Source of the DNA: Wenzhouxiangella sp.
Lineage (GTDB): Bacteria; Pseudomonadota; Gammaproteobacteria; Xanthomonadales; Wenzhouxiangellaceae
NCBI GenBank assembly: GCA_007694885.1
Contig: REEW01000075.1
Location: 8,551-72,550 of the forward strand
Direction: 5' to 3'
Length of the DNA: 64,000 nt
The translations under genes were made by a program, and so were the position numbers. Each line of letters starts with the position of its first letter. Within the stretch, counting starts at the first letter, position 1. This document shows positions 20,534-43,769 of this stretch, piece after piece. The notes below the pieces were generated by a model. It was not told the DNA's origin. It was given only the letters and a program-made list of their open reading frames with translations, and did no database searches.

Positions 20534-21256
20534 TCAGTAGCCGTCGGGCCGATGGAACAGGCGCCGCAGGCGCGCGCCCAGACCGTCGGCGTTGACCACC
20601 ACGATGAAGACCTTGCGCAGGCGATCTTCCGGGCAATCCAGCGCCTTGACGCCGTGCCAGGAGTTGCCCTGGCGCTGGAACAGCAACGATCGATTGCCCA
20701 TGGCCTCGGCCGTCCAGGAACGGTCGAAATCCTCGAAATCCGGGGCGCTGGCGCGGGAGAAGCGACCGCCGTCATCGAGGATGACGGTTTGTCCACCCCA
20801 GTCGCGGTCCCACTCGTCCTCGGTGTTGAAATAAAAGATGTGCGAGCCCAGTTTGCGCCTGGCGTCGCAGTGGGGAGAGACCGACGCTCCGCGCGGGGCG
20901 TAGTGCCAGTGATAGCTGAGACGGAACTTGCGGGTTGCAAACAGGCGCGCCAGCCAGTCCTGGTAGGCCGGGCCGTTGAGCTCGGCAACGAAATCATGCC
21001 AGACGCGATGAACCTCGAGCTCGGGCCGGTACTCCAGGGCGTAGCGGTCGTGCGGTTGTTGCCCGTGCGCCCGCTTGCGGCCGAAGCTCGCTTTCATCAT
21101 GTCCAGCGGCGGCATGTTGGCACGCAGCAGATCGAAGGCTTCCGGCCTCAGCAATCCTTCGGGGTTCAGCCATGGGTAAGGATCGGCCTTGCGAAAGGTG
21201 TCGGTGGCAATGGCGCTGAACTGGCGCTGGTCAAGAATGTTCAAGGCGTTGGTCAT
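20534..21256 (-). CDS. 2OG-Fe(II) oxygenase
   Basis: HxD (PHCD), WGGQT, distal His (SWHGV), RKVF Arg. Confidence 0.8.
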   Translation of the reverse strand: MTNALNILDQRQFSAIATDTFRKADPYPWLNPEGLLRPEAFDLLRANMPPLDMMKASFGRKRAHGQQPHDRYALEYRPELEVHRVWHDFVAELNGPAYQDWLARLFATRKFRLSYHWHYAPRGASVSPHCDARRKLGSHIFYFNTEDEWDRDWGGQTVILDDGGRFSRASAPDFEDFDRSWTAEAMGNRSLLFQRQGNSWHGVKALDCPEDRLRKVFIVVVNADGLGARLRRLFHRPDGY

Positions 21257-23504
21257 GGCGGGACAATCTTCGGGTTTGAGAGCGTTCGTGCGTTTCCAGG
21301 GAAACGCGCAGCGTGCGTGCGGCGGTGATGACGGCCTGGTCCAGTTCATCGATCGCGGGACTGAATCCAGTCGGCAGGGGTTGGCCGAAGGGGGCGGCCA
21401 GGCCCTTGTCGTAGAGCATCCGGTGCAGTTTTTCGACGTTGCGCGGCGGCAGGATCCAGCCGCGTTCCAGCGCCCGCGCGCACAGGTAGGTCTGGCCCTG
21501 CTGCGGGCGAATGCTGCCGCGTCGGTTGAAGCGCGGACGAACCGCGCGATCGGCGATTTCGGCGCTCAGGCGTTGCCAGGCGCCTGGGCGCCGCGCCGGC
21601 GTCGGCCAGATCAGGAACGGCCGGCCGCGGCCGGCCGCATCGGCCAGCATGGATTCGCTTTCTCCAGTGACCATCAGAACGTCACTGCTCGCAAGCGCCA
21701 GGCCGTACGGGTTGTCCTGATCGTGCTCTTCCCAGGAATACAAATGATCGTTTCCGGCCAGTCCGTCTTGCAGGGCATCGAGGATGTCGAGGCTGCGGCG
21801 GCCGGTGACCAGCAGCAGCCGGGCAGACTGCGAATTGGCGAATGCCGAGGCCTGCCGGGCCAGTTCGCGGGCAGCCGCGGCATCGAGATGGTGCGAGCGC
21901 GAGCTGCCGCCGACCAGAACCGCGACTTTGCGCTCGGCGTCAAGCCAGGATTGCCAGCGGTCGGTTGTCGAAGCGCGCGGCGTATGTCCGCTGTTCAGGG
22001 GCAGAGTCGTGGTGATCCGGTTCGGGTGCGGCGGCAGGTCGAAGTGCCGACACTGGATGAGCACGCTGCCCAGCGCCTCGGCCGGCCCGGCCTTGCGTCC
22101 GCTCAGGATCAGGCGCTGGGTCGGGTCCTGCGCCTGCATGTCGCGTGCGATCCGGGTCGGCAGCCAGCCCCCGGCGACCACGATTCCTCCGGCCAGGCTC
22201 GGGTTGATGTCCGGACAGCTGCGGCGTCCGAACAGGCGCCGAAGAACAAAACCGGTCTCGCTGCACTGAATCGGAATTTCGAGCAGTTCGCGCCCGCTGA
22301 GGCCGGCCAGGTGTCGCCCGATGGCGCGGGCCTGGTTGTTGTGACCGGGCTTGCGGTGACAAATGACCTTGACCGGACCGGCCTCGGCCGGCCCGCCGAC
22401 AAAACGCCGGACCCGCCCCCAGGGGCTGCGATAGCGCAGCGTCCAGCGAACCGACGGATGCATGCGCGCTGCCGCCATGAGTTGTTGTTGCCAGTACCAG
22501 AGGCTGCGCCGGGTTCGATGCCGGCCATGCAGCTTGGGTTCGTCAACGGCCACGCGGATCGATTCGCAAGTGCTGAACAGGCGCTCGAGCACCCACGGCA
22601 GATCCTGGTCCGGGAGGTATTCCAGCAGGCCATCGACGGTGCGCTCGGGCACCCGGACGGCCGGCTTTTTCGGCCCCAGCAAGGTGCGCCACTGGGGCGC
22701 CATGCGGGCCGCCGAGCGCGGCCACTGGCTCGACGGGCGGCTGGCGGTGACCGACAGGAAGCCGGCCTGGTCGGCTTCGCCCTCTAGATTCGGCCAGAGC
22801 GGGTCGGTCGGATTGTCGAAGTAGACGAATTCGGCCGGAAAGGGTCGCCATGGCTGGGTATGCAGCGTGGTGAAATGGACCAGGTGCGAGCGTTCGGGAT
22901 CGTACTCGCTGTCGCGGGCGTTCCAGCCTGCATCCAGTTCTGCCCATAGCCCGGCCCGGCGCGCCCTGGCTTCGAGCGCCTTGCGGCCGAGGCGGCGCAC
23001 GTCGTGGGCGTTCCAGACCTCGCTCATGCGCTGGCAGTCGATCAGCATCACCGAGGTGTCGCGATCGTTGATCGACAGAAAGCCGGCCTGATCCATCGGG
23101 GTGTCGAACAGCAGGGCCGGATCCTTCAGGTAGATCTGGTCGGTGTCGTTGTAGATCGCCTTGCCCTTGAGGCCGGCAAAAGCGGGAATGGCAAAGCGAT
23201 AGTTGGTGAATCCGGTCAACCAGAAGCGGCGCTTGAAGCCCTTGAGGTCCCGCATTAGATAGATTTCGTAAATTCTTGAAGAATCTCGATGTTTTTCAAC
23301 AGACCAGATGAACACGCGCTCGGCGCGGAACTGTCCGCGCTCGGTGCCGAGATAAATTCGCACCGGAGGTTTACTGGACGGGCGGACTCCGTTCCTGACC
23401 CCGAGGACGATGCGTTCGGGCTGGTCTTGCCGGGCCGGGGGGCGGCTGGCGTTCAGGGCGGCCGGCTTGAGTCCGCGCAGGATTCGCTGAGTCAGCAAGG
23501 GCAT
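21231..23504 (-). CDS. Fusion: GT-A glycosyltransferase + ELM1/GT-B-like (mitochondrial fission ELM1 family) domain
   Basis: N-terminal TGFTNYRF, YNDTDQ (DxD), TSVMLIDC, HFTTLHTQPW; C-terminal KPGHNNQ, VLVGG, NPYGLAL, VTGESESM. Confidence 0.7.
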   Translation of the reverse strand: MPLLTQRILRGLKPAALNASRPPARQDQPERIVLGVRNGVRPSSKPPVRIYLGTERGQFRAERVFIWSVEKHRDSSRIYEIYLMRDLKGFKRRFWLTGFTNYRFAIPAFAGLKGKAIYNDTDQIYLKDPALLFDTPMDQAGFLSINDRDTSVMLIDCQRMSEVWNAHDVRRLGRKALEARARRAGLWAELDAGWNARDSEYDPERSHLVHFTTLHTQPWRPFPAEFVYFDNPTDPLWPNLEGEADQAGFLSVTASRPSSQWPRSAARMAPQWRTLLGPKKPAVRVPERTVDGLLEYLPDQDLPWVLERLFSTCESIRVAVDEPKLHGRHRTRRSLWYWQQQLMAAARMHPSVRWTLRYRSPWGRVRRFVGGPAEAGPVKVICHRKPGHNNQARAIGRHLAGLSGRELLEIPIQCSETGFVLRRLFGRRSCPDINPSLAGGIVVAGGWLPTRIARDMQAQDPTQRLILSGRKAGPAEALGSVLIQCRHFDLPPHPNRITTTLPLNSGHTPRASTTDRWQSWLDAERKVAVLVGGSSRSHHLDAAAARELARQASAFANSQSARLLLVTGRRSLDILDALQDGLAGNDHLYSWEEHDQDNPYGLALASSDVLMVTGESESMLADAAGRGRPFLIWPTPARRPGAWQRLSAEIADRAVRPRFNRRGSIRPQQGQTYLCARALERGWILPPRNVEKLHRMLYDKGLAAPFGQPLPTGFSPAIDELDQAVITAARTLRVSLETHERSQTRRLSRHDQRLEHS

Positions 23505-23517
23505 CGGACGGGTCCTG

Positions 23518-24456
23518 TCAACGATGAAGTTTCGGGCTGGCGTCGGCTGGCGGCGATTCCGGCTTGAAAGGATGCCGCGACCAGCGTCGCTGATGCCAGC
23601 TCCACCACTGGGGATGGGCCAGGATGTGAGCCTGCATCATGTCGACCAGGATTTTAACCTCTTCAGCCAGGCCGCGTTCGTTGTTCATCAAGATCGGTTC
23701 GGAGAGGCGGAAATGCCAGTGCCGGTCGACGCCGACCAGCCATGCCGGCACCACGCAGGCCCCGGTGCGCCGGGCCATCTCCACCGGGCCCGGCGGCATG
23801 TGCAGCCGCTTGTGGAGAAAGTCGACCGGCACTCCGCCGGTCTTGCTGGCCTGGTCCATGAGGATGAAAATCACCTGGTTGGCCTTCAGCGCGGCGAGCA
23901 TTTTCCGCACCCCCGCTGCCGCCGGCTGCGCCGGAATCGCCTTGAGTCCCTGGCGTTCGATGCCGTCGCGGAAAAAGTCCGGCGTGATCTTGTTGGATTC
24001 GCGGTAGACCACGTGCACCGGGTAGCCAGCGGTGACCAGGTGAACGGCCAGGGCTACGCCGTTGCCCATGTGCATGCCGAGCAGGACGACCCCGCGCCCG
24101 CGATCCAGGGCACGATCCAGCGCTTCCAGGCCGCTGACCCGGCATGCGCCGGCAGTCTGCTCTGCGCTGATGGAACCCGAGTACAGAGCGAGAATCTCGA
24201 AGATGGCCCGATCGTTGATGCGGTAGGCCTCGCGCAGGATCTCGCCGAGGTCAGCACTGGCGGCCGGTCGGGGGCCCAGAACCCGGGCCAGCTGCCGGGT
24301 CAGCTGGCGTCTTTTCTTGCCATCAAGCCGGTAGTGCCAGGCGCCGAGCGTCTCGCCGATGCGGCGCAACGCCGCCCCACCGCCCACCAGGGCGGTGAGC
24401 CGGGCGGTGTGGCGCAGCAGGTGGAACCCGGCCCGCCGGAGCCGTCTGCGCATCAT
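23518..24456 (-). CDS. LpxL/HtrB-like lysophospholipid acyltransferase family protein
   Basis: GRGVVLLGMHMGN, ILMDQ, VDFL, PQWWSWHQRRW. Confidence 0.8.
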   Translation of the reverse strand: MMRRRLRRAGFHLLRHTARLTALVGGGAALRRIGETLGAWHYRLDGKKRRQLTRQLARVLGPRPAASADLGEILREAYRINDRAIFEILALYSGSISAEQTAGACRVSGLEALDRALDRGRGVVLLGMHMGNGVALAVHLVTAGYPVHVVYRESNKITPDFFRDGIERQGLKAIPAQPAAAGVRKMLAALKANQVIFILMDQASKTGGVPVDFLHKRLHMPPGPVEMARRTGACVVPAWLVGVDRHWHFRLSEPILMNNERGLAEEVKILVDMMQAHILAHPQWWSWHQRRWSRHPFKPESPPADASPKLHR

Positions 24457-26162
24457 GATCGTTCCTCGATTCGGCCCTCGCGCAGGCGGAACACGCAGTC
24501 GGCGGCCTCGACCAGACCCTCGTCGTGGCTGACCGCGAGCAGGGTCAGCTTGCCCCGGAGGTTCGTCACGGTCTCGATCACGGCCGCTTCGGATTCACTG
24601 TCGAGGTTGCTGGTTGCCTCGTCAAGGATCAGCAGGGCGGGCTGGTGAATCAGCGCGCGGGCGATCGCCAGGCGCTGGCGCTGGCCGCCCGAGAGCTTGC
24701 CGCCGCGCTCGCCCAGGAGGGTGTGCAGGCCCTGCGGCAGTTGCTCGACGAACTCCCATGCGTCGGCCTGCCTGAGCGCTTGTTCGGCAGCATCGGCCCC
24801 CAGCGCCGGGTCGCCGAGATTGAGATTGTTCAATACCGTGTCGTTGATCAGGAGCGAGTCCTGCGGCACGTAGCCGATCATGCGCCGCCACTGGAGGTGA
24901 TCGATTTCATCGAGGGCGACATCGTCGATCAGGACCGCGCCGCGATCGCAGTGCAACAGGCCGGCGACCAGGTCGATCAGGGTGGTCTTGCCCGAGCCGG
25001 ACGGACCGGTCAGAACGGTCAGCCGACCGGCATCGATGGTCAGGCTGATTTCATCGAGGATGGTCTGGTCGCCGTAGCCGAACGTCACCTTGTCGAAGCG
25101 AATGCCGCGGCGCAAGACGGGCTCGCGGTATCCGCGCGGCGGTTCGCGCTCGCCTTCGGCTTCTTCGATGGTCGCGCGCAGCGACCAGTAGGCGCTTTCG
25201 CTGACGGCCATGTGCTGGAGAGCACGCTGTCCCTTGGCCAGATGACTGACCGATCGGGCGATCAGAAAAATCAGGATCATGACCGTGGCCATGGGCATGC
25301 TCATCTGGACCAGGAAGAAGAAAAAGCCGACCCCGACCAGGATCGCCAGCATGGGCTCTTGCAGGGCAATCAGGGCCGCCTTGGCAAAGACCTGGTTTTT
25401 CAGGGCTTTTTTCAGCTGCTGGGTCTGGACCGAGAGCAGGCTGTCGATATGATCCTCGCGTGCCATGGCCTTGAGCGGTTTGACCGCGCCGAGTTGATCG
25501 GTCATGACCGACAGCAATGACTTGAGCAGACCGGTCTGGCGCCGTCCCGCTCCGCCGGCCATGCGGATCAGAAAGTGCAGCAGGCCGAGCAGGGCGCCGC
25601 CGAAGGCCAGCGCGATCAGGCTGGCTTGCCAGGAGATCAGTAGCGCCAGGCCGGCATAGATGACCGCGCTGATGCCCTGGGTGGCCATGACCGCGCCGTG
25701 GTAAAAGCCCTCCGAGGCTCGATGCGCCTCGGTTGCCATGGCGTTGGACAGCTTGCCCACCGGCTGGGCCAGGTAGTAGCGCCAGCGGCTGTGCATGACC
25801 GCCCGGATCAGGTTCAAACGCAGGTCGGTGGCCACGTGGGCCACGGTGTAGCCGACCTGGCGGTTGGCGAGCAGGACGATGACCGCCTTGAAGCCGATCA
25901 GGCCCACGCCCAGAACCAGCAGCGTGACCAGGGTGGGTTCCAGACCGAGACGCTCGACCAGGTCCAGGGCGACTTGTTCAGGCAGGGAAGGGTCGTCTTC
26001 GGCGCCGGTGGCCAGGTTGAGCATCGACAGCAACAGCGACAGTCCAAGACCATCCAGGAGCCCGGCGACGATCAGGGCGACCAGGGCCAGTGCGGTCCGC
26101 CCGGGGTAGGCCCGGGCAAAGGCGGCAAGCATGGCCAGGCCACCCTCGGTTCGGCGCTTCAT
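24453..26162 (-). CDS. ABC exporter (TMD-NBD fusion), putative glycolipid flippase
   Basis: GPSGSGKT, LSGGQ, ILDEATS; multi-TM N-terminus. Confidence 0.88.
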   Translation of the reverse strand: MKRRTEGGLAMLAAFARAYPGRTALALVALIVAGLLDGLGLSLLLSMLNLATGAEDDPSLPEQVALDLVERLGLEPTLVTLLVLGVGLIGFKAVIVLLANRQVGYTVAHVATDLRLNLIRAVMHSRWRYYLAQPVGKLSNAMATEAHRASEGFYHGAVMATQGISAVIYAGLALLISWQASLIALAFGGALLGLLHFLIRMAGGAGRRQTGLLKSLLSVMTDQLGAVKPLKAMAREDHIDSLLSVQTQQLKKALKNQVFAKAALIALQEPMLAILVGVGFFFFLVQMSMPMATVMILIFLIARSVSHLAKGQRALQHMAVSESAYWSLRATIEEAEGEREPPRGYREPVLRRGIRFDKVTFGYGDQTILDEISLTIDAGRLTVLTGPSGSGKTTLIDLVAGLLHCDRGAVLIDDVALDEIDHLQWRRMIGYVPQDSLLINDTVLNNLNLGDPALGADAAEQALRQADAWEFVEQLPQGLHTLLGERGGKLSGGQRQRLAIARALIHQPALLILDEATSNLDSESEAAVIETVTNLRGKLTLLAVSHDEGLVEAADCVFRLREGRIEERS

Positions 26163-27061
26163 CGAAATCCCCCCTGGCGCCACATCCGCCAGGCCAGGCC
26201 CCAGGCCGCCAGGCGCGGATACCGCCGCATGCGCTCGCTGGGCTCGACCCGCACCCCGCTGTGCCGCTCGACCTTCCAGACGATGTAGTCGATGCCGTTG
26301 CTGAAGGTGCCCGCGGCCTTGAACAGTCGGGCGAGGTTGAACAGTTTTCCGCTGAGCCGGCGCGCGAGCCAGCCGCCGCGCGCCATCGCCTTGTGCAGGC
26401 CGGTCGACGTCGGGGCCGAGGAAATCGCAAGGGCCGAGCTCAGCCGGCTCCAGTAGACCGGATCGGCTGCAATGAGGCGCCGGGCCGCCTGCGGCGGCTC
26501 CGGACGCAGCTCACAGCGATAAGTGGTGGCCAGGGCCAGGGTCCAGAACGCGGCTGAATCGGCAGTCGTTGCCGGTCCGGCAAGCGGCAGGACCCGGCGG
26601 GCAAAGAAGCGGGCCGCCACAGCCCTTGCATCGGCCAGTTCCCCGGCCAGCCCCGGGCTGCGGGCAAAAACCAGGCGGCAGGGCTGGCTGAAGCGCGCCC
26701 AGAAATACAGATCGATCGGATTGCGGCAGCGCCGGCAGAACTGGGCCGGGGTGATCACTGCGTATTTGCTCCGCAGTCGACCCTGTTCCGGGCCTGCTTC
26801 GAGGTAATACACGTTCGGCGGCAGTAGCCAGTTGAACAGGGCGGACGGACCCGTTCCGTAGAGGTCGCGATAACCCGAGACCAGGACCAGTAGATCGACC
26901 AGGCCGTCGCCGAGCTGGTCCTGGCGTCGGCACGAGCCGTACAGGAGCACGCCAAGCAGCTGATCGCCGTAACGCATTTTCAGCGCATCAAGCAGCGGTT
27001 CCAGGCCGCGCGGCGCCGCCGCGGCCAGGTCATCGAGCATGGTCTGCCGGACCGGATTCAC
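26159..27061 (-). CDS. Pol-beta-fold nucleotidyltransferase, Tam41/Mmp37-like (CpgC-like)
   Basis: LLYGSC..DGLVDLLV motif; KYAV and YFWARFSQP resemble Tam41 motifs; coupled to a kinase gene. Confidence 0.55.
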   Translation of the reverse strand: MNPVRQTMLDDLAAAAPRGLEPLLDALKMRYGDQLLGVLLYGSCRRQDQLGDGLVDLLVLVSGYRDLYGTGPSALFNWLLPPNVYYLEAGPEQGRLRSKYAVITPAQFCRRCRNPIDLYFWARFSQPCRLVFARSPGLAGELADARAVAARFFARRVLPLAGPATTADSAAFWTLALATTYRCELRPEPPQAARRLIAADPVYWSRLSSALAISSAPTSTGLHKAMARGGWLARRLSGKLFNLARLFKAAGTFSNGIDYIVWKVERHSGVRVEPSERMRRYPRLAAWGLAWRMWRQGGFR

Positions 27062-28065: not shown

Positions 28066-28112
28066 GGGCTCTCGGTTCGAGGTGGGTAACGGCGCGGCCG
28101 GTCTGCGCCTGC

Positions 28113-29198: not shown

Positions 29199-29311
29199 CG
29201 TGATCCACCACACGTCAACCTGCAATTATACCCAGCGCGGCGCATGCACGAATGCAATAGTCGATTTGTCCTTGGCGTAAAATCACGGTTTGACCGCAAG
29301 CACCGGCCCCG

Positions 29312-30205: not shown

Positions 30206-30211
30206 CAGCGC

Positions 30212-32728: not shown

Positions 32729-32733
32729 AGCCG

Positions 32734-33798: not shown

Positions 33799-33827
33799 AA
33801 CCGATTTACTTGGCAAGGAAACACACA

Positions 33828-35324: not shown

Positions 35325-35331
35325 GCCCTGC

Positions 35332-36516: not shown

Positions 36517-36526
36517 GAGTAAATCC

Positions 36527-36772
36527 TCAGGTCAGCTTGGAGAGACGAACGGCCAGGTCGTTCAGGGTATTGACCTCGGCCAGAACATCGACCGGCACGG
36601 ACAGATCGAGTTCATCCTCGATTTCCATGACCAGGTTCATGATCTGGACCGAGTCCAGTCCGGCCTCGCTGGTCAGGCTTTGGGACCAGTCGATCTCGCG
36701 ATGCTCGGGCAGGGCCCGGGTCAAGGCGGCGGATATGGCCTGGCGGGCCAGCGCAAGAGTATCAGTCGTCAT
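36527..36772 (-). CDS. Acyl carrier protein (sphingolipid-dedicated)
   Basis: GLDSVQIMNLVMEIEDE phosphopantetheine motif; ~81 aa, acidic. Confidence 0.88.
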   Translation of the reverse strand: MTTDTLALARQAISAALTRALPEHREIDWSQSLTSEAGLDSVQIMNLVMEIEDELDLSVPVDVLAEVNTLNDLAVRLSKLT

Positions 36773-37689
36773 TGTCTCCAACCGGGTAATTCGGGCAAGG
36801 CGGACCGCAGGGTTTGCCGGGGTGTCCAGTCCGGCACCACGTCGCAAAGTCTACTATCACAGACCCAGTCGATGTGAGTAAGCTCTCGCACCTTGCCCGG
36901 GCCCAGTATCGCCGGACGTCGACGCAGGCGCGATCCCCCCTGGCTGGCCAGGCTCAACAGGTGCAAGCCCCACCGCGGCAGCGCTACGACCCGGACGCGA
37001 CGGCCCGAAACCTGCTCGGCGATGTCTGCGACATCGGCCCAGCTGTAGCCGTCGGGCCGACCGTCATCGAGGCAGCGCGTGCGTTGCCCCAGCCACGGCA
37101 GCCCGAGCAAATGATCGATGGCCCGGGACAGGTCATCGATGTGGATCAGGGAGAAACGGGCCTGTCCCGGTCCGGCCCGTAGCAGCCATCCGCGGGCCAG
37201 CATTTTCCATAGCGCGGCCAGGGCCTGATCCTTCGGCCCGTAGACCGCCGGCGGTCGCAGAATGAACCAGTCCAGCAGGCTGGTCGCCACCAGGTTTTCC
37301 GCGTCCCGTTTGCTGGCCGCGTAGTCCGACAGGGCCGGCTCGCGCGCGGCCAGGCTGGAGATGAAGATCAGACGAGCGCCCGGGTTGCGCTGTTCAAGGG
37401 CATGGACCAGGCGGCCGGTGCCGACGACGTTGACCCGGGCGAAGTCGGCGAAATTCCGCCCCGCAATGGCTCCGGCAAGGTGAACGACGCTGTCGGCATC
37501 GGTGATCAACTCATTCAGCGCAGCCTGGTTTTCCAGGTGCCCGCAGACTTCGGTCAGGCGAGGATGGCGGGCCAGCGTCCCGGTTTTGCGGGTCAGTGCG
37601 CGGACCGAGTAACCTCGATCCAGGAGCAGGCCGAGTACGGCGCGACCGATGAAGCCGGTGGCCCCGGTCAGGGCAACGACGGCGGTCAC
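36769..37689 (-). CDS. cerR: NAD-dependent epimerase/dehydratase family, putative ceramide reductase
   Basis: TGATGFIG, SSLAAREP, YAASK, RPPAVYGP; position matches the spt-acp-cerR-ligase block. Confidence 0.75.
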   Translation of the reverse strand: MTAVVALTGATGFIGRAVLGLLLDRGYSVRALTRKTGTLARHPRLTEVCGHLENQAALNELITDADSVVHLAGAIAGRNFADFARVNVVGTGRLVHALEQRNPGARLIFISSLAAREPALSDYAASKRDAENLVATSLLDWFILRPPAVYGPKDQALAALWKMLARGWLLRAGPGQARFSLIHIDDLSRAIDHLLGLPWLGQRTRCLDDGRPDGYSWADVADIAEQVSGRRVRVVALPRWGLHLLSLASQGGSRLRRRPAILGPGKVRELTHIDWVCDSRLCDVVPDWTPRQTLRSALPELPGWRQ

Positions 37690-37704
37690 GGCAGCAGCGC
37701 CATT

Positions 37705-39507
37705 TCAGCCCCTGGAGGGTTCGGCGGCTTCGGTGTGCGGCGTCCGATTGACCAGCTCGCGGGGCAGGAACTGGCGCTGCTCGAGGTCGTTGCGCTTGAG
37801 GAAATCCAGCCGGGCCCCGCTGCGCGACAGCTTGCCGGACGATGTCCGCGGAAGCGTATGCAGCGGCACCAGCTCGATCAGGCAGGCGATCCCGAATTCC
37901 GACTGGATCTTCTGTTTCAGGCGCTCGACCAGGTCGGCCTGGCGGAATGCGTTCTGCTCGCGGCATTGAACCACCAGGACCGCGACTTCGCTGCCGTCTT
38001 CGCTCGGAATGGAAAACGCCGAGGCATCCTCCGGGCGAACTTCGGGCTGTTGTTCGGCAACATATTCAAGATCCTGCGGCCAAATGTTACGACCATTGAT
38101 GATCAGCAAGTCCTTGGCTCGGCCGGTGATGAACAGGGAGTCGCCGGCTCGGTAGCCGACGTCTCCGGTATTGAGCCAGCCGTCCTTGGACAAGGCCACA
38201 GCCGTGGCTTCGGGGTTGTTGGCATAGCCGCTCATGACGCTTGGGCCGCGCAGGAAAATCACGCCGCACTCGCGTTCGGCCGCGCTCGTCCCGTCGTCTC
38301 TGCGGATCTCGACTTCGTATCCGGGCAGGTGCCGTCCGCAGTTGACGAACTCGGTCAGGCGCTGATCCTGATCACCGCCTGTGCCGTCGGCCGGCACGGC
38401 GAGTCGGTCGATGGCCAGCCGGTCGGCATCGACCAGGTCGGTATCGATCCCCTGGCCCAGGGGCGAGAAGCTGACCGCCAGGGAACACTCCGCCATGCCG
38501 TAGCAGGGCAGAAACGCCTGGGGACTGAACCGGGACGGCTGCAGGGCGTCGGCGAAGCCCTGGAGCCACGGCGCCCGGATCATTTCCGCGCCCACCCCGG
38601 CAACGCGCCAGGCCGACAGATCGTACTGGCCGACGTCGCTTGCGCGCAGACGGCGCGCGCACAGTGCATAGCCGAACGGCGGGCTGAAGGAAATGGTGGC
38701 GCGGTTGCGCGACATCAGGCTCAGCCACAGGCGCGGTCGCATGGCGAATTCCCGGGTTCCCAGGTAGTCGACCGACAGTTGCGAGACGACCGGACCCAGG
38801 ATCAGTCCGACCAGTCCCATGTCGTGGTAGTAGGGCAGCCAGGACATGAATCGGTCGCCGCGCCGGATCTGGACGCCGTACTGGAGAATGCCGGCCAGGT
38901 TATCCAGGACCGCGCGCTGGGTGATCATCGTGCCGCGCGGGAAGCGGGTCGAACCCGAGGTGTACTGCAAATAGGCCAGTTCGCCGGGTTGCGGCGCTTG
39001 CGGCAGGCATTCGGCCCGATCGAGGTTCTCGAACACCGAAAGCGGGCCGACCACGTCCAGCTCCAGGCCATCGGCAGCTTCGGCCAGGAAGGTGGCAAAC
39101 GAGTCCGGTGCGAAGGCGCCGCGCGCCTGGCAGTCGATCAGCATGGCCCGCAAGTGCTGCACGAACGCCTCGCGTCCTCCCAGGTGGACGGCGGCAGGCA
39201 ACGGCACCGGCACCAGGCCGGCGTACTGGCAGGCAAAAAACAGAACCAGGAAATCCGGATGGGTATCGGCGACCAGGGCAATTCTGCTGCCGCGCGGCAG
39301 GTTCAGCCCGTGCAGGCGGTGCGCCATCTCACAGGCCCCGCGCCGGAGCTCGGCATAGCTCAGCGCCCGCTGCAGTTCGCCGCGGCCATCATAGAAATTG
39401 CACCCGGTGGTTCCCTGGGCGGCGTAATCCAGCGCTTCGGCGAGGCTTGCGTAACCCGAGGTTTTCAGGGGCAAGGAGTTTTCGGTCGGGGTCGGCTGCG
39501 GCATCAA
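37705..39507 (-). CDS. Fatty acyl-AMP ligase / acyl-ACP synthetase
   Basis: YLQYTSGSTRFPRG, SWLPYYHDMGLVG, YGMAE, TGD, RTSSGK. Confidence 0.88.
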   Translation of the reverse strand: MMPQPTPTENSLPLKTSGYASLAEALDYAAQGTTGCNFYDGRGELQRALSYAELRRGACEMAHRLHGLNLPRGSRIALVADTHPDFLVLFFACQYAGLVPVPLPAAVHLGGREAFVQHLRAMLIDCQARGAFAPDSFATFLAEAADGLELDVVGPLSVFENLDRAECLPQAPQPGELAYLQYTSGSTRFPRGTMITQRAVLDNLAGILQYGVQIRRGDRFMSWLPYYHDMGLVGLILGPVVSQLSVDYLGTREFAMRPRLWLSLMSRNRATISFSPPFGYALCARRLRASDVGQYDLSAWRVAGVGAEMIRAPWLQGFADALQPSRFSPQAFLPCYGMAECSLAVSFSPLGQGIDTDLVDADRLAIDRLAVPADGTGGDQDQRLTEFVNCGRHLPGYEVEIRRDDGTSAAERECGVIFLRGPSVMSGYANNPEATAVALSKDGWLNTGDVGYRAGDSLFITGRAKDLLIINGRNIWPQDLEYVAEQQPEVRPEDASAFSIPSEDGSEVAVLVVQCREQNAFRQADLVERLKQKIQSEFGIACLIELVPLHTLPRTSSGKLSRSGARLDFLKRNDLEQRQFLPRELVNRTPHTEAAEPSRG

Positions 39508-39574
39508 TGCTGTAGATTCCCTTCTTTTGGTCTGTGCGGCCCTCAGGAGACCCGGTAAATCTCCCGGATCAACA

Positions 39575-39592
39575 GGTCATTATATGTTGACC
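39575..39592. promoter_or_regulatory. Operator-like palindrome overlapping a minus-strand TATAAT in the divergent promoter region
   Basis: GGTCAttatatgtTGACC (14/18 self-complementary); TATAAT on the minus strand at 39579-39584. Confidence 0.4.
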
Positions 39593-39703
39593 AGCGCCTA
39601 AAGGAAATATACATGCTTCAATCGAGCATTTCCGACGCAGCAGCGAGCCGGAATTGAGGGTACATTGAGCACTGATTCAATGCACGGGTTCTGAATTCGC
39701 TTC

Positions 39704-40837
39704 ATGGCTGCAACAGTCCACGTTGTGCCGGTCTGTTCAAGGCGCGACTGGCAGAGTTTTCATGCGTTTCCCGGACGGATCTATGCCGATGATCCGCACT
39801 GGGTCAAGCCTCTGCTGCTGGAGTCCAGGGCCTTGTGGTCGCCCAGGACGCCCTGGTTCGAACACGCCCGGGCCCAGGCCTTCCTGGCCTGGCGCGATCA
39901 ACGACCGGTCGGCCGAATCAGTGCCCAGGTCGATGACCTGCAGCCGCTCGAGCAGGGCCGCAAAATCGGCTATTTCGGCCAGTTCGAGTGCCTGGACGAC
40001 CGGGAGATCGCCCGGGCGATGTTTGCCCAGGCGGGCCGTTGGCTCTCCCGGCACGGCTGCGAGCGGGTCAGGGGACCCTACGATCTGGGCATCAACCAGG
40101 CCTGCGGGCTGCTGGTGGAGGGCCGCGACTCGCCGCCCATGATCATGATGGGTCATGCCCCGGCCTACTACCAGGGTCTGATCGAAGACGCCGGATTGGC
40201 CCGCGAGATGGATTTGCTCGCCTACCTGCTGCCGCCGGACTTCGATCCGCCGCAGGCGATGGTTCGACTGCTCGAGCGCAGCGCCCGGCGGGTTCGGCTC
40301 CGGCCCATGGATTTCTCGAACTTCAAAAATGAGATCAGTGTGTTGCGCGATATTTTCAACGATGCCTGGTCGGCCAACTGGGGGTTCGTGCCGCTGACCC
40401 GAGCGGAGTTCAAGCGCATGGGTGACGAAATGCGCAAGATCCTGAAGCCGGCCTATACCTGCCTTGCCGAGGTGGACGGTGAGCCGGCGGGTTTCCTCGT
40501 CGCGCTGCCCAATCTCAATGAGTTGATCCGCGATCTGGACGGCCGTTTGCTGCCGACCGGCTGGGCCCGGCTGCTCTGGCGTCTGGCGCGCAACCGGGCG
40601 AGCTCGGCCCGGGTTCCGCTGATGGGCGTGCGTCAGGTCTACCAGCGCGGTGCGCTCGGTGCGGCGATCAGTTTCGGCATGATCGACGCGGTGCGTCGTG
40701 CTTTGCATGCCGACGGCATTCGGCGGGTGGAGGTATCTTGGATCCTGGAAACCAACCGGGGAATGAACTCGATGATCGAGGCCATGGGCGGACAGTTGTA
40801 CAAACGATACCGGCTCTACGGCCGGGCACTGACCTGA
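39704..40837 (+). CDS. bcerS: Bacterial ceramide synthase (GNAT-type, YghO-like)
   Basis: IYADDPHWVKPL, GRISAQ, GYFGQFE, MMGHAPAYY, FNDAWSANWGFVP, SWILETN, YKRYRLY; divergent from the spt operon. Confidence 0.78.
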   Translation: MAATVHVVPVCSRRDWQSFHAFPGRIYADDPHWVKPLLLESRALWSPRTPWFEHARAQAFLAWRDQRPVGRISAQVDDLQPLEQGRKIGYFGQFECLDDREIARAMFAQAGRWLSRHGCERVRGPYDLGINQACGLLVEGRDSPPMIMMGHAPAYYQGLIEDAGLAREMDLLAYLLPPDFDPPQAMVRLLERSARRVRLRPMDFSNFKNEISVLRDIFNDAWSANWGFVPLTRAEFKRMGDEMRKILKPAYTCLAEVDGEPAGFLVALPNLNELIRDLDGRLLPTGWARLLWRLARNRASSARVPLMGVRQVYQRGALGAAISFGMIDAVRRALHADGIRRVEVSWILETNRGMNSMIEAMGGQLYKRYRLYGRALT

Positions 40838-40846
40838 GGCTGATCC

Positions 40847-41644
40847 GTGGTCGAAGATTTCGACGCCATCGTTCTGGCCGGCGACCGGGGGCCGGATGAC
40901 CCCCTCGCGCGCCATGCCGGTGTGGCCGGCAAGGCGCTGGTGCCGGTCGCCGGGACGCCCATGCTGACCCGGGTTCTGGCGGTGCTGGCGGGCTGGCCCC
41001 GGTTGCGCCGACTGGTGCTGGTCGCGCCCGATCTGCCGGCCTACCGCGAGGCCGCGGCCGGTGTCGCCGATTCGCGCCGCCTGATCTGGCTGGAGCCTTG
41101 CGCGTCCTTGAGCGCCAGCGTGCGCGCAGCGCTGGCGTCGACAGCCGGTGCCCAGCGCCTGGTGCTGACCGCCGATCACGCCCTGCTCGACCGGGCCTGG
41201 CTGGATCGTATGGCCGAAGCCGGGGAGCCCGGCGACGGCTTTGCCATGTCGATCGGCCTGACCGACTGGCACGGGGTCATGCGGCGCTTTCCCGGCAGTC
41301 GGCGGACCCGTTACCGGTTCAGCGACCGCAGTGTCTGTGGAACCAACCTGTTCGCCATCCACGACGACAGCGTCGAGGCCCTGCTGGAGGTCTGGCAGCG
41401 GGTCGAGCGCGAGCGCAAGAAACCATGGAAAATCCTCAGCCTGCTGGGCTGGGGCAATCTGGGCCGATACCTGGCCGGACGCCTTGATCTTGACGCAGCA
41501 TTCGCCGCGCTCTCGGTCCGTGTCGGGGTCGGTGTTCGACCGCTGCTGCTGGCTGATCCGCTCACGGCAGTGGATGTGGACAGCCCGGCCGATCTTGCGC
41601 TGGTCGAGTCGGTGGTCGCAAGAATGGATCAACAAACGTGCTGA
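40847..41644 (+). CDS. MobA-like NTP transferase (CpgD-like)
   Basis: AIVLAG, KALVPVAG, LTADHAL, DVDSPAD. Confidence 0.78.
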   Translation: MVEDFDAIVLAGDRGPDDPLARHAGVAGKALVPVAGTPMLTRVLAVLAGWPRLRRLVLVAPDLPAYREAAAGVADSRRLIWLEPCASLSASVRAALASTAGAQRLVLTADHALLDRAWLDRMAEAGEPGDGFAMSIGLTDWHGVMRRFPGSRRTRYRFSDRSVCGTNLFAIHDDSVEALLEVWQRVERERKKPWKILSLLGWGNLGRYLAGRLDLDAAFAALSVRVGVGVRPLLLADPLTAVDVDSPADLALVESVVARMDQQTC

Positions 41645-42702
41645 TCGAGCGCTATCTGGCCCGTGAGATTCTGCGCCCGGTACTGGGCGTGTTCTCGTTT
41701 TTGCTGGTGGTGGTCCTGGTTTTTTACGCCAGCCAGCTGCTCGCCCGGGCCGCCATGGAAGGGTTGCCCATGGAGATCGTGGCGCGCATGGCCGTTCTCC
41801 GCCTGGGTCTGTTTTTCGACGTGCTGGTTCCGATTTCCATGCTGCTTGGCATGGTGGTCGGCCTGGGTCGTCTGCAGGCTGCCCATGAAATCACGGCATT
41901 GGCTGCCGCCGGCGGCGGCAGGCGTCGAATCGTGATGGCCCTGCTGCTTTGGGTGGCGCTGCTGGCGGTCCTGGTAGCCCTGGCGTCCATGGTTTTTCGA
42001 CCCTGGGCTTATGCAAGCCTGTACGAACTGGAACGGGAACTGGCCGCTGAACTGAACCTCGACCGGGTCGAGCCCGGACGCTTCCAGGTCGGGGACGATC
42101 AGTGGCTGATTTATGCCGAGGCCCGCCGTGACGGTGTCCTGAAAGAGGTCATGGTGCGCCAGCGCGCCGATCGTTTCAGCGGCTTGCTTCGGGCCCAGCG
42201 TCTTACCCAGGAATACGAGGAGGAGGGCGCCTTGCGGCTGATCTTCGAGGGCGATGTGCGCAGCTACACCATGGCCGGAGACGGTGAACCGGATCTGGTG
42301 GCCGTTTTCGATCGCTTCGATGTTCTGCTGCAGGTGCGCGCGCCGCCGCGCCGGGAACAACTGCGGCGAGCGATGCCGACGAGCCGCCTGACCGGGACCG
42401 ATGAGCCGATCGAGATGGCTGAACTGCAGTGGCGCCTGGTCAGTCCGGTGTCGGTGATCGCGCTGGCGCTGGCCGGGATCGCCCTGAGCCGGATCAATCC
42501 ACGCCTCGGCCAATCGGCGCGGGTGCTGTCGGCCACCCTGGCCGCGACCGTGTATTTCAGCGGACTGGGCGTGCTGATCAACTGGATCGAGCAGGGCCAG
42601 CTGGCGTTCTGGCCCGGCGCTTTCCTCGCCCCGCTGCTGGTGCTGATTGCGCTGGTGGTGCGCTACTGGCTGGTCCAGCGCGGCCCGGGAGCGCCGTTAT
42701 GA
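41638..42702 (+). CDS. LptF/LptG family permease (LptF-like paralog)
   Basis: IERYLARE, EITALAAAG, PGRF, AELQWRL; 3 TM + periplasmic domain + 3 TM. Confidence 0.85.
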   Translation: MLIERYLAREILRPVLGVFSFLLVVVLVFYASQLLARAAMEGLPMEIVARMAVLRLGLFFDVLVPISMLLGMVVGLGRLQAAHEITALAAAGGGRRRIVMALLLWVALLAVLVALASMVFRPWAYASLYELERELAAELNLDRVEPGRFQVGDDQWLIYAEARRDGVLKEVMVRQRADRFSGLLRAQRLTQEYEEEGALRLIFEGDVRSYTMAGDGEPDLVAVFDRFDVLLQVRAPPRREQLRRAMPTSRLTGTDEPIEMAELQWRLVSPVSVIALALAGIALSRINPRLGQSARVLSATLAATVYFSGLGVLINWIEQGQLAFWPGAFLAPLLVLIALVVRYWLVQRGPGAPL

Positions 42703-43769
42703 GGATTCTGGCCGAATACATCATCACCCGGCTGCTCGGAGCCTACGCGGTCACCGCGCTTGCAATGGGCGCCTTGATCTGGTTGCTGGAGGTGTTGCAA
42801 TACCTGGAAGACGGGGTGGCCGGAGCCATGGACTTCGTCCGCATCCTGCTGGGCGCCTTGCAGATCGTCCCGGAAGGCCTGATCGATCTGTTGCCGGTGA
42901 TGACCGTGCTGGCGACGGCGGCGGCGATGGGCGGCCTGCAGGCGCGCAGCGAAATGACGGTCATGCGGGCTTCCGGACTGTCGATCTGGCGTTTGACCAC
43001 CGTTGCCCTGGTGCCTGGGGTGCTGATTGCCCTGATGGCGCTGGCGGCGTTGCAATGGGTCACGCCGCTCGTGCAGCAGGGGCCGGAACGCCTGATTGGT
43101 GCTTCGCTGGGAGAAAACGGCCTGTGGCATCCATCGCACGGTCTTTGGGTGCGCCAGGACAACGAATTTCTCAATGTCCAGGAACTGCGACTGGGACGCA
43201 TTCCCACCGGCATCAACCTCTACCGTTTCGACGATGACGGCGGACTGCGCGAACACGTCGAAGCGGAAACCGCGGTGGTCGAGCCCGACGGCCTCTGGCG
43301 TCTGGAGCAGGTGCGGCTGCGCGACTACCGAGCCGATGCGCTGGAACCGCTTGCCGAAGTCGAGGAACTTGCGTGGCCTTCTTTCCTGTCCGCGCGTCAG
43401 CTGGAATTGTTGCTCAGCCCGCCGGCCAGCCTTCCCTTGAGCGATCTGTGGCAGTACGTCAGCGGGCTCAAGGCCCGCGGCCAGGAGTTTGCCGAGTTCG
43501 AGATGGTTTTGTGGCGGCGATTGGCCTTGCCGCTGGCCTGCCTGGGCATGGTTCTGGCGGCCATGGCCACCGCGGCCGTGCCCTTGAAGAGCAGGGCGGT
43601 GAGCGTTCGCCTGGTGGCAGCCATGACCCTGGGGCTGGGGTTCCAGCTTCTGGCCGAGCTGGCTTCTTACCTGGGTCTGGTTCTGGCCTGGCCGGTGATT
43701 CCGGTGGCGCTGGGGCCACCGCTGTTGCTGTCCGGCCTGGCCTGGTGGATGCTGGCGAGATCCCGTTAG
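42699..43769 (+). CDS. LptF/LptG family permease (LptG-like paralog)
   Basis: MRILAEYI, SEMTVMRASGLS, GLWVRQ, LWRRLALP. Confidence 0.85.
   Translation: MRILAEYIITRLLGAYAVTALAMGALIWLLEVLQYLEDGVAGAMDFVRILLGALQIVPEGLIDLLPVMTVLATAAAMGGLQARSEMTVMRASGLSIWRLTTVALVPGVLIALMALAALQWVTPLVQQGPERLIGASLGENGLWHPSHGLWVRQDNEFLNVQELRLGRIPTGINLYRFDDDGGLREHVEAETAVVEPDGLWRLEQVRLRDYRADALEPLAEVEELAWPSFLSARQLELLLSPPASLPLSDLWQYVSGLKARGQEFAEFEMVLWRRLALPLACLGMVLAAMATAAVPLKSRAVSVRLVAAMTLGLGFQLLAELASYLGLVLAWPVIPVALGPPLLLSGLAWWMLARSR

Follow-up and report, generated by a model that had tools for sequence, protein, structure and literature searches.

In Caulobacter crescentus, CC_1152-CC_1168 is the region for ceramide, CPG/CPG2 and LptF2/G2 (PMC11324152, PMC12275187, bioRxiv 10.64898/2026.04.12.717747). 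The ELM1-family protein KdoT of Acinetobacter baumannii (A1S_2903) has an SRRT motif and acts on the Kdo2-lipid IVA/LOS core (PMC12856342). Transferases of Tannerella forsythia (Tanf_01245, TFUB4_00887, BFO_1060) add Pse or Leg caps to protein O-glycans (PMC5420450). Kdn is made by condensation of mannose-6-phosphate with PEP (PMC7845648), and the alga Emiliania huxleyi makes a Kdn-ceramide (sGSL; PMC7650762).

The locus described here shares with Caulobacter the gene set aas-cerR-acp-spt, cerS followed by a nucleotidyltransferase gene, a DAGK-family kinase gene, a CpgC-like gene and, alongside a normal LPS pathway, an additional LptF/G pair. In addition it harbours a GT8-ELM1 fusion, an LpxL-like acyltransferase, an ABC exporter, a 2OG oxygenase and a nonulosonate-sulfate cassette, whereas cpgA, cpgD and CC_1158 gave no match in the window's assembly. 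Orthology to Caulobacter was judged from gene order and through the loci of E. coli and Roseomonas. Ceramide and export genes occur here together with sugar-acid and sulfating enzymes, and the pairing recurs in distant bacteria, which makes a ganglioside-like lipid likely. Judged from sequence, the product would be an ulosonate-capped, possibly sulfated, anionic phosphosphingolipid of the outer membrane (probability about 0.6). We found no such bacterial lipid in print, and the predicted molecule would be undescribed.

Organization of the locus

The window, the whole stretch of 64,000 nucleotides that was analysed, belongs to a Wenzhouxiangella-like genome and contains 20 adjoining genes (20534..43769). 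The source DNA came from a soda lake. The genes form three modules: the ceramide core (A), tailoring, transfer and export (B) and the nonulosonate-sulfate cassette (C). Every enzyme class named in the earlier note was found where that note had placed it. However, its 19 genes become 20; the TIGR04396 protein (30212-31570) and the oxidoreductase (31664-32728) were missing from its list, and its single contiguous run resolves into four strand blocks: desaturase to 2OG oxygenase (minus), sulfotransferase to neuB (plus), acyl-AMP ligase to spt (minus) and cerS to lptG (plus). Adjacent longest ORFs overlap or are at most 196 bp apart; gene starts were refined for the 2OG oxygenase, ACP and LptG2.

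An assembly artefact was rejected because read depth showed no step over 26000-44500 (3/3 runs of one study), single contigs spanned both the desaturase/sulfotransferase and the neuB/spt junctions, and the order B-C-A was identical in G020, G005 and L122. The modules match the flanking genes in GC (0.663-0.666 versus 0.653) and GC3 (0.80-0.84 versus 0.83).

The ceramide core and LptF2/G2

Module A is a Caulobacter-type ceramide core with LptF2/G2:

35332..36516, minus: serine palmitoyltransferase, Spt (NF047599, 577 bits, cut-off 500)
36527..36772, minus: dedicated acyl carrier protein (PF00550, E 4e-12)
36769..37689, minus: putative ceramide reductase CerR (PF01370; 40% to the E. coli spt-operon gene)
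37705..39507, minus: acyl-ACP synthetase (PRK09192, 768 over 600; 47% to the E. coli spt-operon ligase)
39704..40837, plus: putative bacterial ceramide synthase, CerS (41% to E. coli YghO, 45% to a Roseomonas gene)
40847..41644, plus: nucleotidyltransferase, putative CC_1153 equivalent (PF12804; 37% to the Roseomonas gene after cerS)
41638..42702, plus: LptF2 (PF03739)
42699..43769, plus: LptG2 (TIGR04408, 247 over 240)

The PLP enzyme exceeded the NF047599 cut-off and stayed below those of BioF (326, cut-off 426) and Kbl (242, cut-off 493), so the grouping with BioF or Kbl that the earlier note had set against its ceramide backbone does not hold. The backbone itself is supported; the best-matching solved structures were also SPTs (E 2e-129). 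Spt and the ligase belong to ceramide-pathway families, and by analogy with Caulobacter the proteins would have the corresponding activities. As with cerS here, the yghO gene of E. coli is divergent from the spt operon.

A second LptF/G pair of this genome is located on contig C111. LptF2 matched the E. coli spt-locus copy with E 2e-31 and the C111 copy did so with E 9e-14; for LptG2 the values were 2e-36 and 3e-21, respectively. The LptF/G, LpxL-like and MsbA-like genes of the locus are additional to canonical copies. The LPS genes lie outside the locus; lpxC, kdtA and kdsB are present in the genome, and the true MsbA is encoded at window positions 700-2451.

Tailoring, transfer and export genes

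Module B comprises seven genes:

20534..21256, minus: 2OG-Fe(II) oxygenase, predicted lipid hydroxylase (PF13640, E 1e-5; 26.8 bits, slightly below the cut-off of 27)
21231..23504, minus: GT8-like and ELM1 (KdoT-family) fusion, predicted glycosyl-/CMP-ulosonate transferase (PF06258, E 7e-24, residues 386-664)
23518..24456, minus: divergent LpxL-family acyltransferase (PF03279, 98.9 bits)
24453..26162, minus: ABC exporter, predicted lipid flippase (PF00664 and PF00005)
26159..27061, minus: nucleotidyltransferase-like protein, putative CpgC (CC_1161) equivalent (39% to a gene of Roseomonas L121)
27058..28065, minus: DAGK-family kinase, putative ceramide kinase CpgB (PF00781, E 2e-12; 30% to the Roseomonas kinase)
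28113..29198, minus: fatty-acid desaturase/hydroxylase (PF00487, E 2e-20)

Like KdoT, the fusion has a PF06258 domain, divergent here (85 bits), and an SRRT-like motif (TGRRS, 567-571); R569 was found in 41/45 and R570 in 38/45 aligned rows. KdoT is a stand-alone protein, whereas this ELM1 domain is joined to a GT8-like one and follows the distribution of spt within the genus. Residues 20-260 were closest to GT8 clusters (score 0.97), to be read as a lead only. The 2OG oxygenase is 73-85% identical to its counterparts in the genus loci. Three better-scoring LpxL-family members lie on other contigs, and the ABC exporter fell below every NCBIfam cut-off shown. The CpgC-like protein had no Pfam match; its Roseomonas relative adjoins a lipid kinase and a CDP-alcohol transferase gene. 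In eight genus genomes without cassette C, the desaturase gene directly follows spt.

The nonulosonate-sulfate cassette

Cassette C is a dispensable five-gene unit:

29312..30205, plus: PAPS-dependent sulfotransferase (PF00685, E 4e-27)
30212..31570, plus: TIGR04396 GT-B protein, predicted CMP-nonulosonate transferase (TIGR04396, 300 bits, cut-off 125)
31664..32728, plus: Gfo/Idh/MocA oxidoreductase, predicted sugar-modifying step (PF01408, PF22725)
32734..33798, plus: NeuA-type cytidylyltransferase fused to a HAD phosphatase (PF02348; PseF E 5e-34, under the cut-off)
33828..35324, plus: NeuB-family synthase with a C-terminal sugar-isomerase-like cupin (PF03102, PF07883, PF07385)

The AKSGRTW and RDPRD..VS motifs of the sulfotransferase align with cytosolic sulfotransferases. 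The window's own assembly (88% complete) yielded no APS kinase, although a strong match was present in 10/12 genus carriers.

The TIGR04396 protein carries sialyltransferase motifs, with DEEG (82-85) and RPHP (231-234) invariant in 86/86 aligned rows. It resembles the Tannerella transferases in its GT-B, TagB/TagF-like fold, in the D/E-D/E-G and HP motifs and in adjoining nonulosonate genes, but stays below their family cut-off (NF046086, BFO_1060; E 3e-18, 66 versus 200 bits). Its model (pLDDT 95) has a GT-B fold that ties between UDP-GlcNAc 2-epimerases (Z 19.8, 307 aligned) and TagF/TarL phosphotransferases (Z 19.7, 311 aligned), both at an rmsd of 4.0. This protein and the ELM1 domain are the likely transferases. 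The oxidoreductase occurs in 17/80 NeuB-cupin loci, 15 of them in the window's NeuB clade.

In the HAD-fused NeuA, which has a DIDG motif, the HAD domain is C-terminal (residues 249-346 match 9IQW, E 1e-8); a HAD-like domain was found in 54/80 related loci. NeuB-cupin scored below the NeuB and PseI cut-offs, and the closest structure was 3G8R (E 2e-92). In the alignment, Met304 takes the place of Arg314 in Neisseria NeuB, and this position is Met or Phe in 80/80 relatives. No NeuC was found for the window genome. After the condensation, Kdn biosynthesis proceeds through a 9-phosphatase and a CMP-Kdn synthetase, and in Bacteroides it has a three-gene layout. Cassette C has the synthase, phosphatase and cytidylyltransferase of the Kdn pathway and likewise no NeuC, but its HAD domain is of another type and fused to NeuA, a cupin is fused to the synthase, and an oxidoreductase is added. 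The failure to find NeuC, the replaced Arg314 and the kept HAD and cupin domains slightly favour Kdn or a derivative. The sialic-acid-like sugar proposed earlier is thus probably of Kdn type and not Neu5Ac or sialic acid proper.

Proposed pathway

The product is very probably a ceramide-based anionic lipid. Ceramide would be formed by the acyl-ACP synthetase, ACP, Spt, CerS and CerR, and its chains may be tailored by the desaturase and the 2OG enzyme. A CPG-like ceramide-1-phosphate derivative would then arise through the CpgB-like kinase together with the proteins resembling CpgC and CC_1153; CPG2 is not expected, because cpgA and cpgD were not found. GT8-ELM1 would attach a sugar plus an ulosonate; the default ulosonate would be Kdo, supplied by the housekeeping KdsB. 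The LpxL-like enzyme would contribute an acyl chain, the ABC exporter may flip the lipid, and LptF2/G2 may extract it. This scheme parallels lipid A-Kdo assembly, but on a ceramide anchor, and it is quite likely that module B acts on this lipid.

In genomes that retain cassette C, the cupin could provide an aldose phosphate such as mannose-6-phosphate, which NeuB would join to PEP and the HAD domain dephosphorylate. NeuA would form the CMP-sugar, the oxidoreductase alter it, the TIGR04396 protein cap the lipid and the sulfotransferase sulfate it. Capping of the ceramide lipid by the cassette is probable; sulfate on it is a tentative proposal, a little short of an even chance. The predicted head group is short. 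It would bear Kdo, a Kdn-type nonulosonate or both of these keto-deoxy sugar acids, and perhaps a sulfate.

As in sGSL and animal gangliosides, a nonulosonate would sit on ceramide. Those lipids, like sulfatides, are made by eukaryotic enzymes through a direct glycosidic link, whereas for the bacterial lipid a phospho-link, an extra acylation and export through Lpt paralogues are predicted. The kinase and the CpgC-like gene argue for this phospho-link and against the direct sugar-ceramide bond of gangliosides, and in this respect the analogy drawn earlier is changed.

Distribution and alternative explanations

Within the genus, module B tracks spt: GT-ELM1 was found in 20/23 spt-positive and 1/13 spt-negative genomes (15/15 versus 1/6 in good assemblies). 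NeuB-cupin orthologues were present in 11/23 and 1/13, respectively (good assemblies 6/15 versus 0/6). These genomes are kin, and the counts do not come from independent samples. The cassette abuts spt in 10/12 genus carriers. It is separated from spt in G061 and also in Nitrosomonas sp. ANs5. In a quick Spt tree, carriers occurred in all main branches and cassette-less genomes in three groups, and therefore the link looks old.

Cassette genes also neighbour those for sphingolipids in Nitrosomonas, Panacagrimonas, Myxococcota and metagenomes, as do NeuABC- and Kdn-type pathways. The arrangement varies: in Nitrosomonas (L035, L131) the cassette genes run in the same direction as aas-cerR-acp-spt, in L029 and L137 they are intermixed with module B, and in Panacagrimonas they lie inside the sphingolipid region. 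Among 80 NeuB-cupin loci, a sphingolipid marker was found in 8/22 with TIGR04396 or a close oxidoreductase gene and in 0/58 without. Ceramide-synthase orthologues (44-54%) were found in 9/13 Pseudomonadota NeuB-cupin carriers outside Wenzhouxiangella, compared with 16/400 genomes in the even draw described below. Metagenome loci of TIGR04396 relatives had a marker in 18/80 (six depending on one weak marker) and none in 62; 46 loci were under 10 kb. Among loci of at least 10 kb the marker was present in 14/34, or 10/23 clusters at 60% identity. The TIGR04396 gene is placed directly after spt in L164, L168 and L178; in L150 and L197 it is accompanied by neuABC, and in L192 by a Kdn-type set.

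The Nitrosomonas carriers have TIGR04396 and lack GT-ELM1 and the sulfotransferase; therefore the acceptor cannot be identical everywhere. The co-location with spt raised by the earlier note recurs in other genomes for the nonulosonate genes; the lack of a sulfotransferase in the Nitrosomonas cassettes makes the sulfatide-like product the weakest part of an interpretation that is partly supported as a whole.

In an even draw of Gammaproteobacteria, 16/400 genomes had a ceramide-synthase match, and ELM1 occurred in 70/384 genomes without ceramide synthase. TIGR04396 was present in 8/399 scored genomes, with a ceramide-synthase match in one of these eight, on a different contig; all three NeuB-cupin relatives (40-47%) were in genomes without a match. 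Therefore neither family as a whole is tied to sphingolipids, and the tie is limited to the TIGR04396/NeuB-cupin subgroup near the window. L026 and L043, of the window's NeuB clade, had no nearby sphingolipid gene, and their genomes gave no ceramide-synthase match.

The seven even-draw carriers without a match and the 58 distant loci without a sphingolipid gene fit a different target, in which the ceramide pathway is real and cassette C, sharing an envelope gene island, decorates LPS core, exopolysaccharide or a protein glycan; the ELM1, LpxL-like and 2OG genes perhaps likewise serve a non-sphingolipid target. The genome makes lipid A, the targets of KdoT and the BFO_1060 family are Kdo2-lipid IVA and protein glycans, and the cassette is oriented independently and has been lost from genomes that retain modules A and B. 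We nevertheless consider this unlikely: among six good spt-negative genus assemblies none has the NeuB orthologue and one has GT-ELM1, the same neighbourhood is met again in varied gene orders and together with three nonulosonate pathways, and neither the 20 genes nor their annotated flanks showed a gene for an O-antigen polymerase, a ligase, capsule export or flagellin.

A nonulosonate sphingolipid made with other roles, with the cassette's CMP-sugar and not Kdo as the ELM1 substrate and with the TIGR04396 protein acting as a TagF-like phosphotransferase or nucleotide-sugar epimerase, is quite improbable. In its favour, besides the fold tie, the Atlas gives a TagF-domain cluster at 0.97, and in L168, a CPG2-type locus, the TIGR04396 gene follows spt with no neuA or neuB within 21 kb. 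However, the DEEG and HP motifs are invariant, the Tannerella transferases are likewise described as TagB-like, and Nitrosomonas has the gene without GT-ELM1. Moreover, TIGR04396 loci contain neuA in 38/80 and neuB in 28/80, and L150, L197, L130, L147 and L170 encode NeuC as a protein of its own. That a longer glycan, either a sphingolipid-linked oligosaccharide or a capsule, is instead carried on the ceramide, with ulosonates as linker and further sugars from genes elsewhere, is very improbable for a locus with only three transferase domains and no polymerase or chain-length gene, although the ABC exporter and LpxL-like enzyme fit a larger glycolipid and several ELM1, sulfotransferase and methyltransferase genes lie beside cerS in other gammaproteobacterial loci (G254, G259, G296, G410, G444).

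Locus organization and integrity

Four blocks of closely spaced genes, 20 genes in all, make up the locus, and we divide them into three sets as follows:

20534-43769, complete locus
Module A, ceramide core (aas, acp, cerR, spt, cerS and a CC_1153-like nucleotidyltransferase gene) with lptF2/lptG2
Module B, kinase, CpgC-like gene (26159-27061), desaturase, ABC exporter, LpxL-like acyltransferase, 2OG oxygenase and GT8-ELM1 fusion (GT-ELM1)
Cassette C, sulfotransferase, TIGR04396 protein (putative transferase), Gfo/Idh/MocA oxidoreductase, NeuA-HAD and NeuB-cupin

Every enzyme class named in the earlier note was recovered in this interval, but its gene list had left the TIGR04396 protein and the Gfo/Idh/MocA oxidoreductase unnamed. 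The window belongs to contig C23 of an assembly that is 88% complete, and its nearest homologues carry the name Wenzhouxiangella. Near-identical DNA was found in three soda-lake metagenome runs, all from one study; none of the runs listed with near-identical sequence was an RNA run. Misassembly was ruled out, as the read depth showed no step across the locus and contigs spanned both junctions of cassette C. A recent horizontal insertion of the cassette was likewise ruled out by the pattern of the Spt tree and by GC and GC3 values that match those of the flanking genes. A promoter and terminator scan of the locus gave results at chance level. Downstream of lptG lies a small conserved gene (43831-44166, minus strand) that occupies the same place in the genus loci. 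Its relatives have a twin-arginine-like N-terminus, and it matched no family at the strict threshold used.

We propose that the locus directs synthesis of a ceramide-1-phosphate-based lipid, to which module B would add a sugar and Kdo. Module B would also acylate and flip this lipid and pass it to LptF2/G2, and cassette C would cap it with a sugar of the Kdn type, perhaps also with sulfate. We give this reading a probability of roughly 0.58. It draws on gene content, family scores, motifs, fold and co-occurrence, from which we infer every substrate, every product and the order of steps.

The ceramide core and the additional Lpt proteins

The PLP enzyme, listed in the earlier note as an AOS-family member to be compared with Spt, BioF and Kbl, proved to be an Spt. 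It scored 577 bits against NF047599 (Spt; cut-off 500), and stayed under the cut-offs of TIGR00858 (BioF; 326/426) and TIGR01822 (Kbl; 242/493). Solved SPTs were its top-ranked structure matches. Identities to their counterparts at the E. coli spt locus were 47% for the ligase, 40% for the reductase, 31% for the ACP, 51% for Spt and 41% for the GNAT protein, and the divergent arrangement of the module A genes was the same. With aas, cerR, acp, spt and cerS present together, the core belongs, by gene content, to the ceramide clusters of the Caulobacter type, and ceramide production itself is predicted. The ceramide synthase profile gave no match when searched against PDB sequences.

Four PF03739 matches were found in the genome, two of them on C111, another contig of the same assembly, so that an LptF/G pair exists beyond the LPS pair. 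Because the genome elsewhere holds lpxC, kdtA, msbA-lpxK-kdsB, three further LpxL-family genes and this second LptF/G pair, the LptF/G, LpxL-like and exporter copies of the locus are extra. Two candidates were rejected on these grounds, namely the locus LptF/G as the LPS pair (second pair on C111) and the locus product as a replacement of LPS (lipid A genes present). In Caulobacter, LptF2/G2 are described as essential only if an anionic sphingolipid is made (bioRxiv 10.64898/2026.04.12.717747).

Module B and its co-occurrence with spt

The module B kinase shares 30% identity with the kinase of a Roseomonas sphingolipid locus, and the product of 26159-27061 shares 39% with the protein encoded next to that kinase. 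By comparison with these Roseomonas genes, the two are putative counterparts of CpgB and CpgC. CpgB and CpgC are described as leading to ceramide-1-phosphate and CPG in Caulobacter (PMC12275187, PMC11324152). When protein queries from comparison genome G042 were searched against the window's own 88%-complete assembly, CpgA-like and CC_1158-like proteins gave no match and CpgD only two short weak ones. The locus therefore differs from the CPG2 pathway, whose gene set was not recovered in the core, with cpgA and cpgD not found in the own assembly.

KdoT is described as a CMP-Kdo transferase in which an SRRT motif matters for activity (PMC12856342, PMC10936431). The window protein shares the PF06258 domain with KdoT and carries TGRRS, which matches the SRRT motif; both arginines are conserved, and thus both the domain and the SRRT-like arginines of the KdoT family were found. 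The GT-ELM1 alignment profile had no match among PDB sequences. A canonical msbA-lpxK-kdsB cluster lies at 700-4201, 16 kb from the locus, and its KdsB would be the source of CMP-Kdo used by the ELM1 domain.

Among the 36 Wenzhouxiangella-like genomes, GT-ELM1 was present in 20 of 23 spt-positive and 1 of 13 spt-negative genomes, with the 37% spt match of genome G019 counted as spt-negative. In good assemblies these numbers were 15/15 and 1/6. GT-ELM1 thus tracks spt within the genus, and named Wenzhouxiangella species carry the gene. In eight genus genomes the desaturase directly follows spt, so that modules A and B are joined as a single unit and cassette C is absent. We also sampled 400 Gammaproteobacteria evenly (even draw). 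ELM1 was found in 11 of the 16 genomes with a ceramide-synthase match versus 70 of 384 without, the 70 including the unpublished genome G146. It lay within 25 kb of cerS in five of the 16, representing three families, and sulfotransferases stood alongside ELM1/cerS in all three of the loci examined from these five.

The predicted sugar acid of cassette C

The earlier note expected a sialic-acid-like sugar. Nonulosonate genes were indeed present, but the gene content resembled a pathway to Kdn and not one to Neu5Ac, Pse or Leg. Neu5Ac was rejected as product: NeuB reached 155 of the 400 bits of TIGR03569, NeuC (PF02350) was not found in the own genome, and Met304 aligns with Arg314 of Neisseria NeuB, an arginine that binds the N-acetyl group. 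Met or Phe occupies this position in 80/80 relatives. Pse and Leg were rejected as well, since NeuB scored 128/340 against PseI and NeuA 118/206 against PseF, and no dehydratase, aminotransferase or acyltransferase gene of that route is among the 20 locus genes. The cupin His, Lys and Glu residues are kept in 71-79 of the 80 relatives. The replaced Arg314, the conserved cupin residues, the HAD domain on NeuA and the failure to find NeuC together point to a phosphorylated, non-acetylated route, most simply Kdn. Judged on gene content only, a synthase, a sugar-phosphate phosphatase and a cytidylyltransferase are present and an N-acyl supply is not. The cassette fits a route to Kdn from mannose-6-phosphate and PEP, the reported starting compounds (PMC7845648), with the substrate of the synthase predicted. 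The oxidoreductase suggests a further change of the sugar.

Among the papers listed from open-access literature and preprints we found neither a published study of the NeuB-cupin family nor a paper using the name RccF. Many genomes of Bacillota, Bacteroidota, PVC and CPR bacteria carry NeuB-cupin paired with NeuA-HAD (loci L034-L099). In the NeuB search, 8000 candidates were scored and 4655 of them, plain NeuB proteins included, matched at E 1e-30. Three loci carry tandem TIGR04396 genes with NeuA (L182, L195, L200), joined by an aldehyde dehydrogenase in L195 and L200 and a transketolase in L200; these gene sets suggest another sugar-acid pathway.

The putative transferase and the sulfotransferase of cassette C

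DEEG and HP motifs are invariant in the TIGR04396 protein. Such D/E-D/E-G and HP motifs are described for bacterial sialyltransferases and Tannerella Pse/Leg transferases (PMC5420450). The window protein shares the motifs and a GT-B fold with the Tannerella enzymes, but matches their NF046086 (BFO_1060) family weakly, at 66/200 bits. Its structure model was confident and predicted a GT-B fold, with 2-epimerases and TagF/TarL enzymes tied as top matches. No sialyltransferase was among the best 50 VIA and best 30 Foldseek rows, a result that leaves room for such a relation, and the alignment profile had no match among PDB sequences. That ELM1 and TIGR04396 have roles other than those proposed seems to us improbable. 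Still less probable is that ceramide is the anchor of a longer glycan.

The sulfotransferase has a PF00685 domain with both PAPS-binding motifs. APS kinase was not found in the window's own assembly (88% complete); a strong match was present in 10 of the 12 genus carriers of the cassette NeuB. A second sulfotransferase (G000:C97:23634-24575), 33% identical to the cassette copy, lies outside any lipid cluster.

Probable coupling of cassette C to the sphingolipid genes

A NeuB orthologue was found in 12 of the 36 genus genomes, abuts spt in 10 of these 12, and was found in none of the six good spt-negative assemblies. All five cassette genes were found complete in seven of the carriers. The Spt tree suggests that the cassette is ancestral in the genus and was lost about three times; this tree (quick FastTree, midpoint root) and the quick NeuB tree do not test the order of events. 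The window's NeuB groups with rows from Pseudomonadales, Porticoccaceae, Nitrosomonas and Myxococcota in an 18-row clade supported at SH-aLRT 100, and cassette genes are present in two organisms in culture, Panacagrimonas perspica and Nitrosomonas sp. ANs5.

Among 80 NeuB-cupin loci, sphingolipid markers occurred in 8 of 22 with the transferase or a close oxidoreductase versus 0 of 58 without, three of the eight being Wenzhouxiangella. Some Wenzhouxiangella loci duplicate genus genomes and were left out of the outside-lineage counts. Of 13 other Pseudomonadota carriers, 9 had a ceramide-synthase orthologue, in a search that covered 50 of the 80 loci. An apparent spt beside the cassette in locus L030 proved to be BioF (466/426) and was dropped. 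When metagenomes were scanned with the alignment of the transferase, 18/80 loci held sphingolipid markers, six of which rest on one weak marker (L153, L181, L195, L197, L198 and, on a cautious count, L163). The TIGR04396 gene directly follows spt in L164, L168 and L178, is accompanied by neuABC in L150 and L197, and by a KdsC-like phosphatase and short NeuB in L192. Coupling is most strongly supported by this occurrence of different sugar pathways with one transferase family next to genes for sphingolipids. In L150 (4496-20259) and L197 (749-11347), neuA-neuB-neuC and the TIGR04396 gene stand beside cpg-like and lptF/G genes, and these loci are candidates for a true sialic-acid-capped sphingolipid.

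Alternatively, the target of cassette C could be LPS, EPS or protein. LOS or protein is the acceptor for the known relatives of both transferases. In two genomes the cassette and the spt region are separate, and no sphingolipid link was seen for two members of the NeuB clade. The Nitrosomonas cassettes lack a sulfotransferase, those genomes lack GT-ELM1, and no strong APS kinase match was found in the two searched. Co-location of nonulosonate genes with sphingolipid genes in other genomes, a check that the earlier note had proposed, was found in the genus carriers and in loci of other lineages, but in the even draw a ceramide-synthase match was present in 1 of 8 TIGR04396 carriers (399 genomes scored) and in 0 of 3 distant NeuB-cupin carriers. 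The genomes in the supporting counts are kin, and the loci were selected by likeness to the window. We consider this alternative unlikely and favour capping of the sphingolipid.

Relation to known lipids

Kdn-ceramide, with a reported Kdn fragment at m/z 249.06, is described from the alga Emiliania (PMC7650762), and a study of the Black Sea reported sulfated 1-deoxyceramides, presumed bacterial, with no gene assigned to them (PMC11334938). The bacterial head groups listed in one review include none with sialic acid, Kdn or Kdo (PMC10626005), and according to a 2026 paper the glycan diversity described so far is limited (PMC13028669). Among the papers listed in our searches of the PMC Creative Commons set and bioRxiv, none reported a bacterial sialylated, Kdn- or Kdo-bearing sphingolipid, or sphingolipids of Wenzhouxiangella. 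An amino-heptulosonate ceramide reportedly occurs in Flectobacillus, according to older literature.

A wider reading, to which we give slightly less than an even chance, is an LPS-like assembly line that Proteobacteria have rebuilt on ceramide, in which kinase, Kdo transferase, late acyltransferase, flippase and Lpt paralogues would yield a Kdo-sphingolipid. Exchangeable cassettes would place Kdn, sialic acid or a sugar related to these on it as a cap, together with sulfate, giving true ganglioside counterparts, with TIGR04396 as sialyltransferase, in soda-lake Wenzhouxiangella, ammonia-oxidising Nitrosomonas and the cultured Panacagrimonas. If true, ulosonate-capped ceramides would form a class of membrane lipids new to bacteria, one that has converged on gangliosides and on the Emiliania Kdn-ceramide that marks virus susceptibility. 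Lipid A enzymes would be shown to be reused on ceramide, and two orphan families, TIGR04396 and the ELM1 domains in sphingolipid loci, would gain functions. Sialylated ceramides would also become less safe as eukaryotic markers in environmental lipidomics.

Other sphingolipid loci

Several gammaproteobacterial sphingolipid loci carry multiple ELM1 genes, sulfotransferases and methyltransferases (L100-L101 in genome G296, L104-L105 in G410, L108-L109 in G259). No neuAB was in view in these loci, which are candidates for sulfated Kdo-sphingolipids; in L108-L109, ATP sulfurylase-APS kinase genes are adjacent to the ELM1/sulfotransferase locus. Distant cerS-like genes (33%) adjoin very long acyl-AMP ligase fusions in L116-L117 (G135, G275), with no spt match in the stretch examined. 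In genus genome G024 a PF01553 acyltransferase (L018:11951-12685) follows spt, at the position taken elsewhere in the genus by the cassette or by the desaturase. Finally, genes for myo-inositol-1-phosphate synthase, a nucleotidyltransferase and a CDP-alcohol transferase adjoin a gammaproteobacterial ceramide locus in G219 (L110:9830-12823), making inositol phosphoceramide a candidate product.
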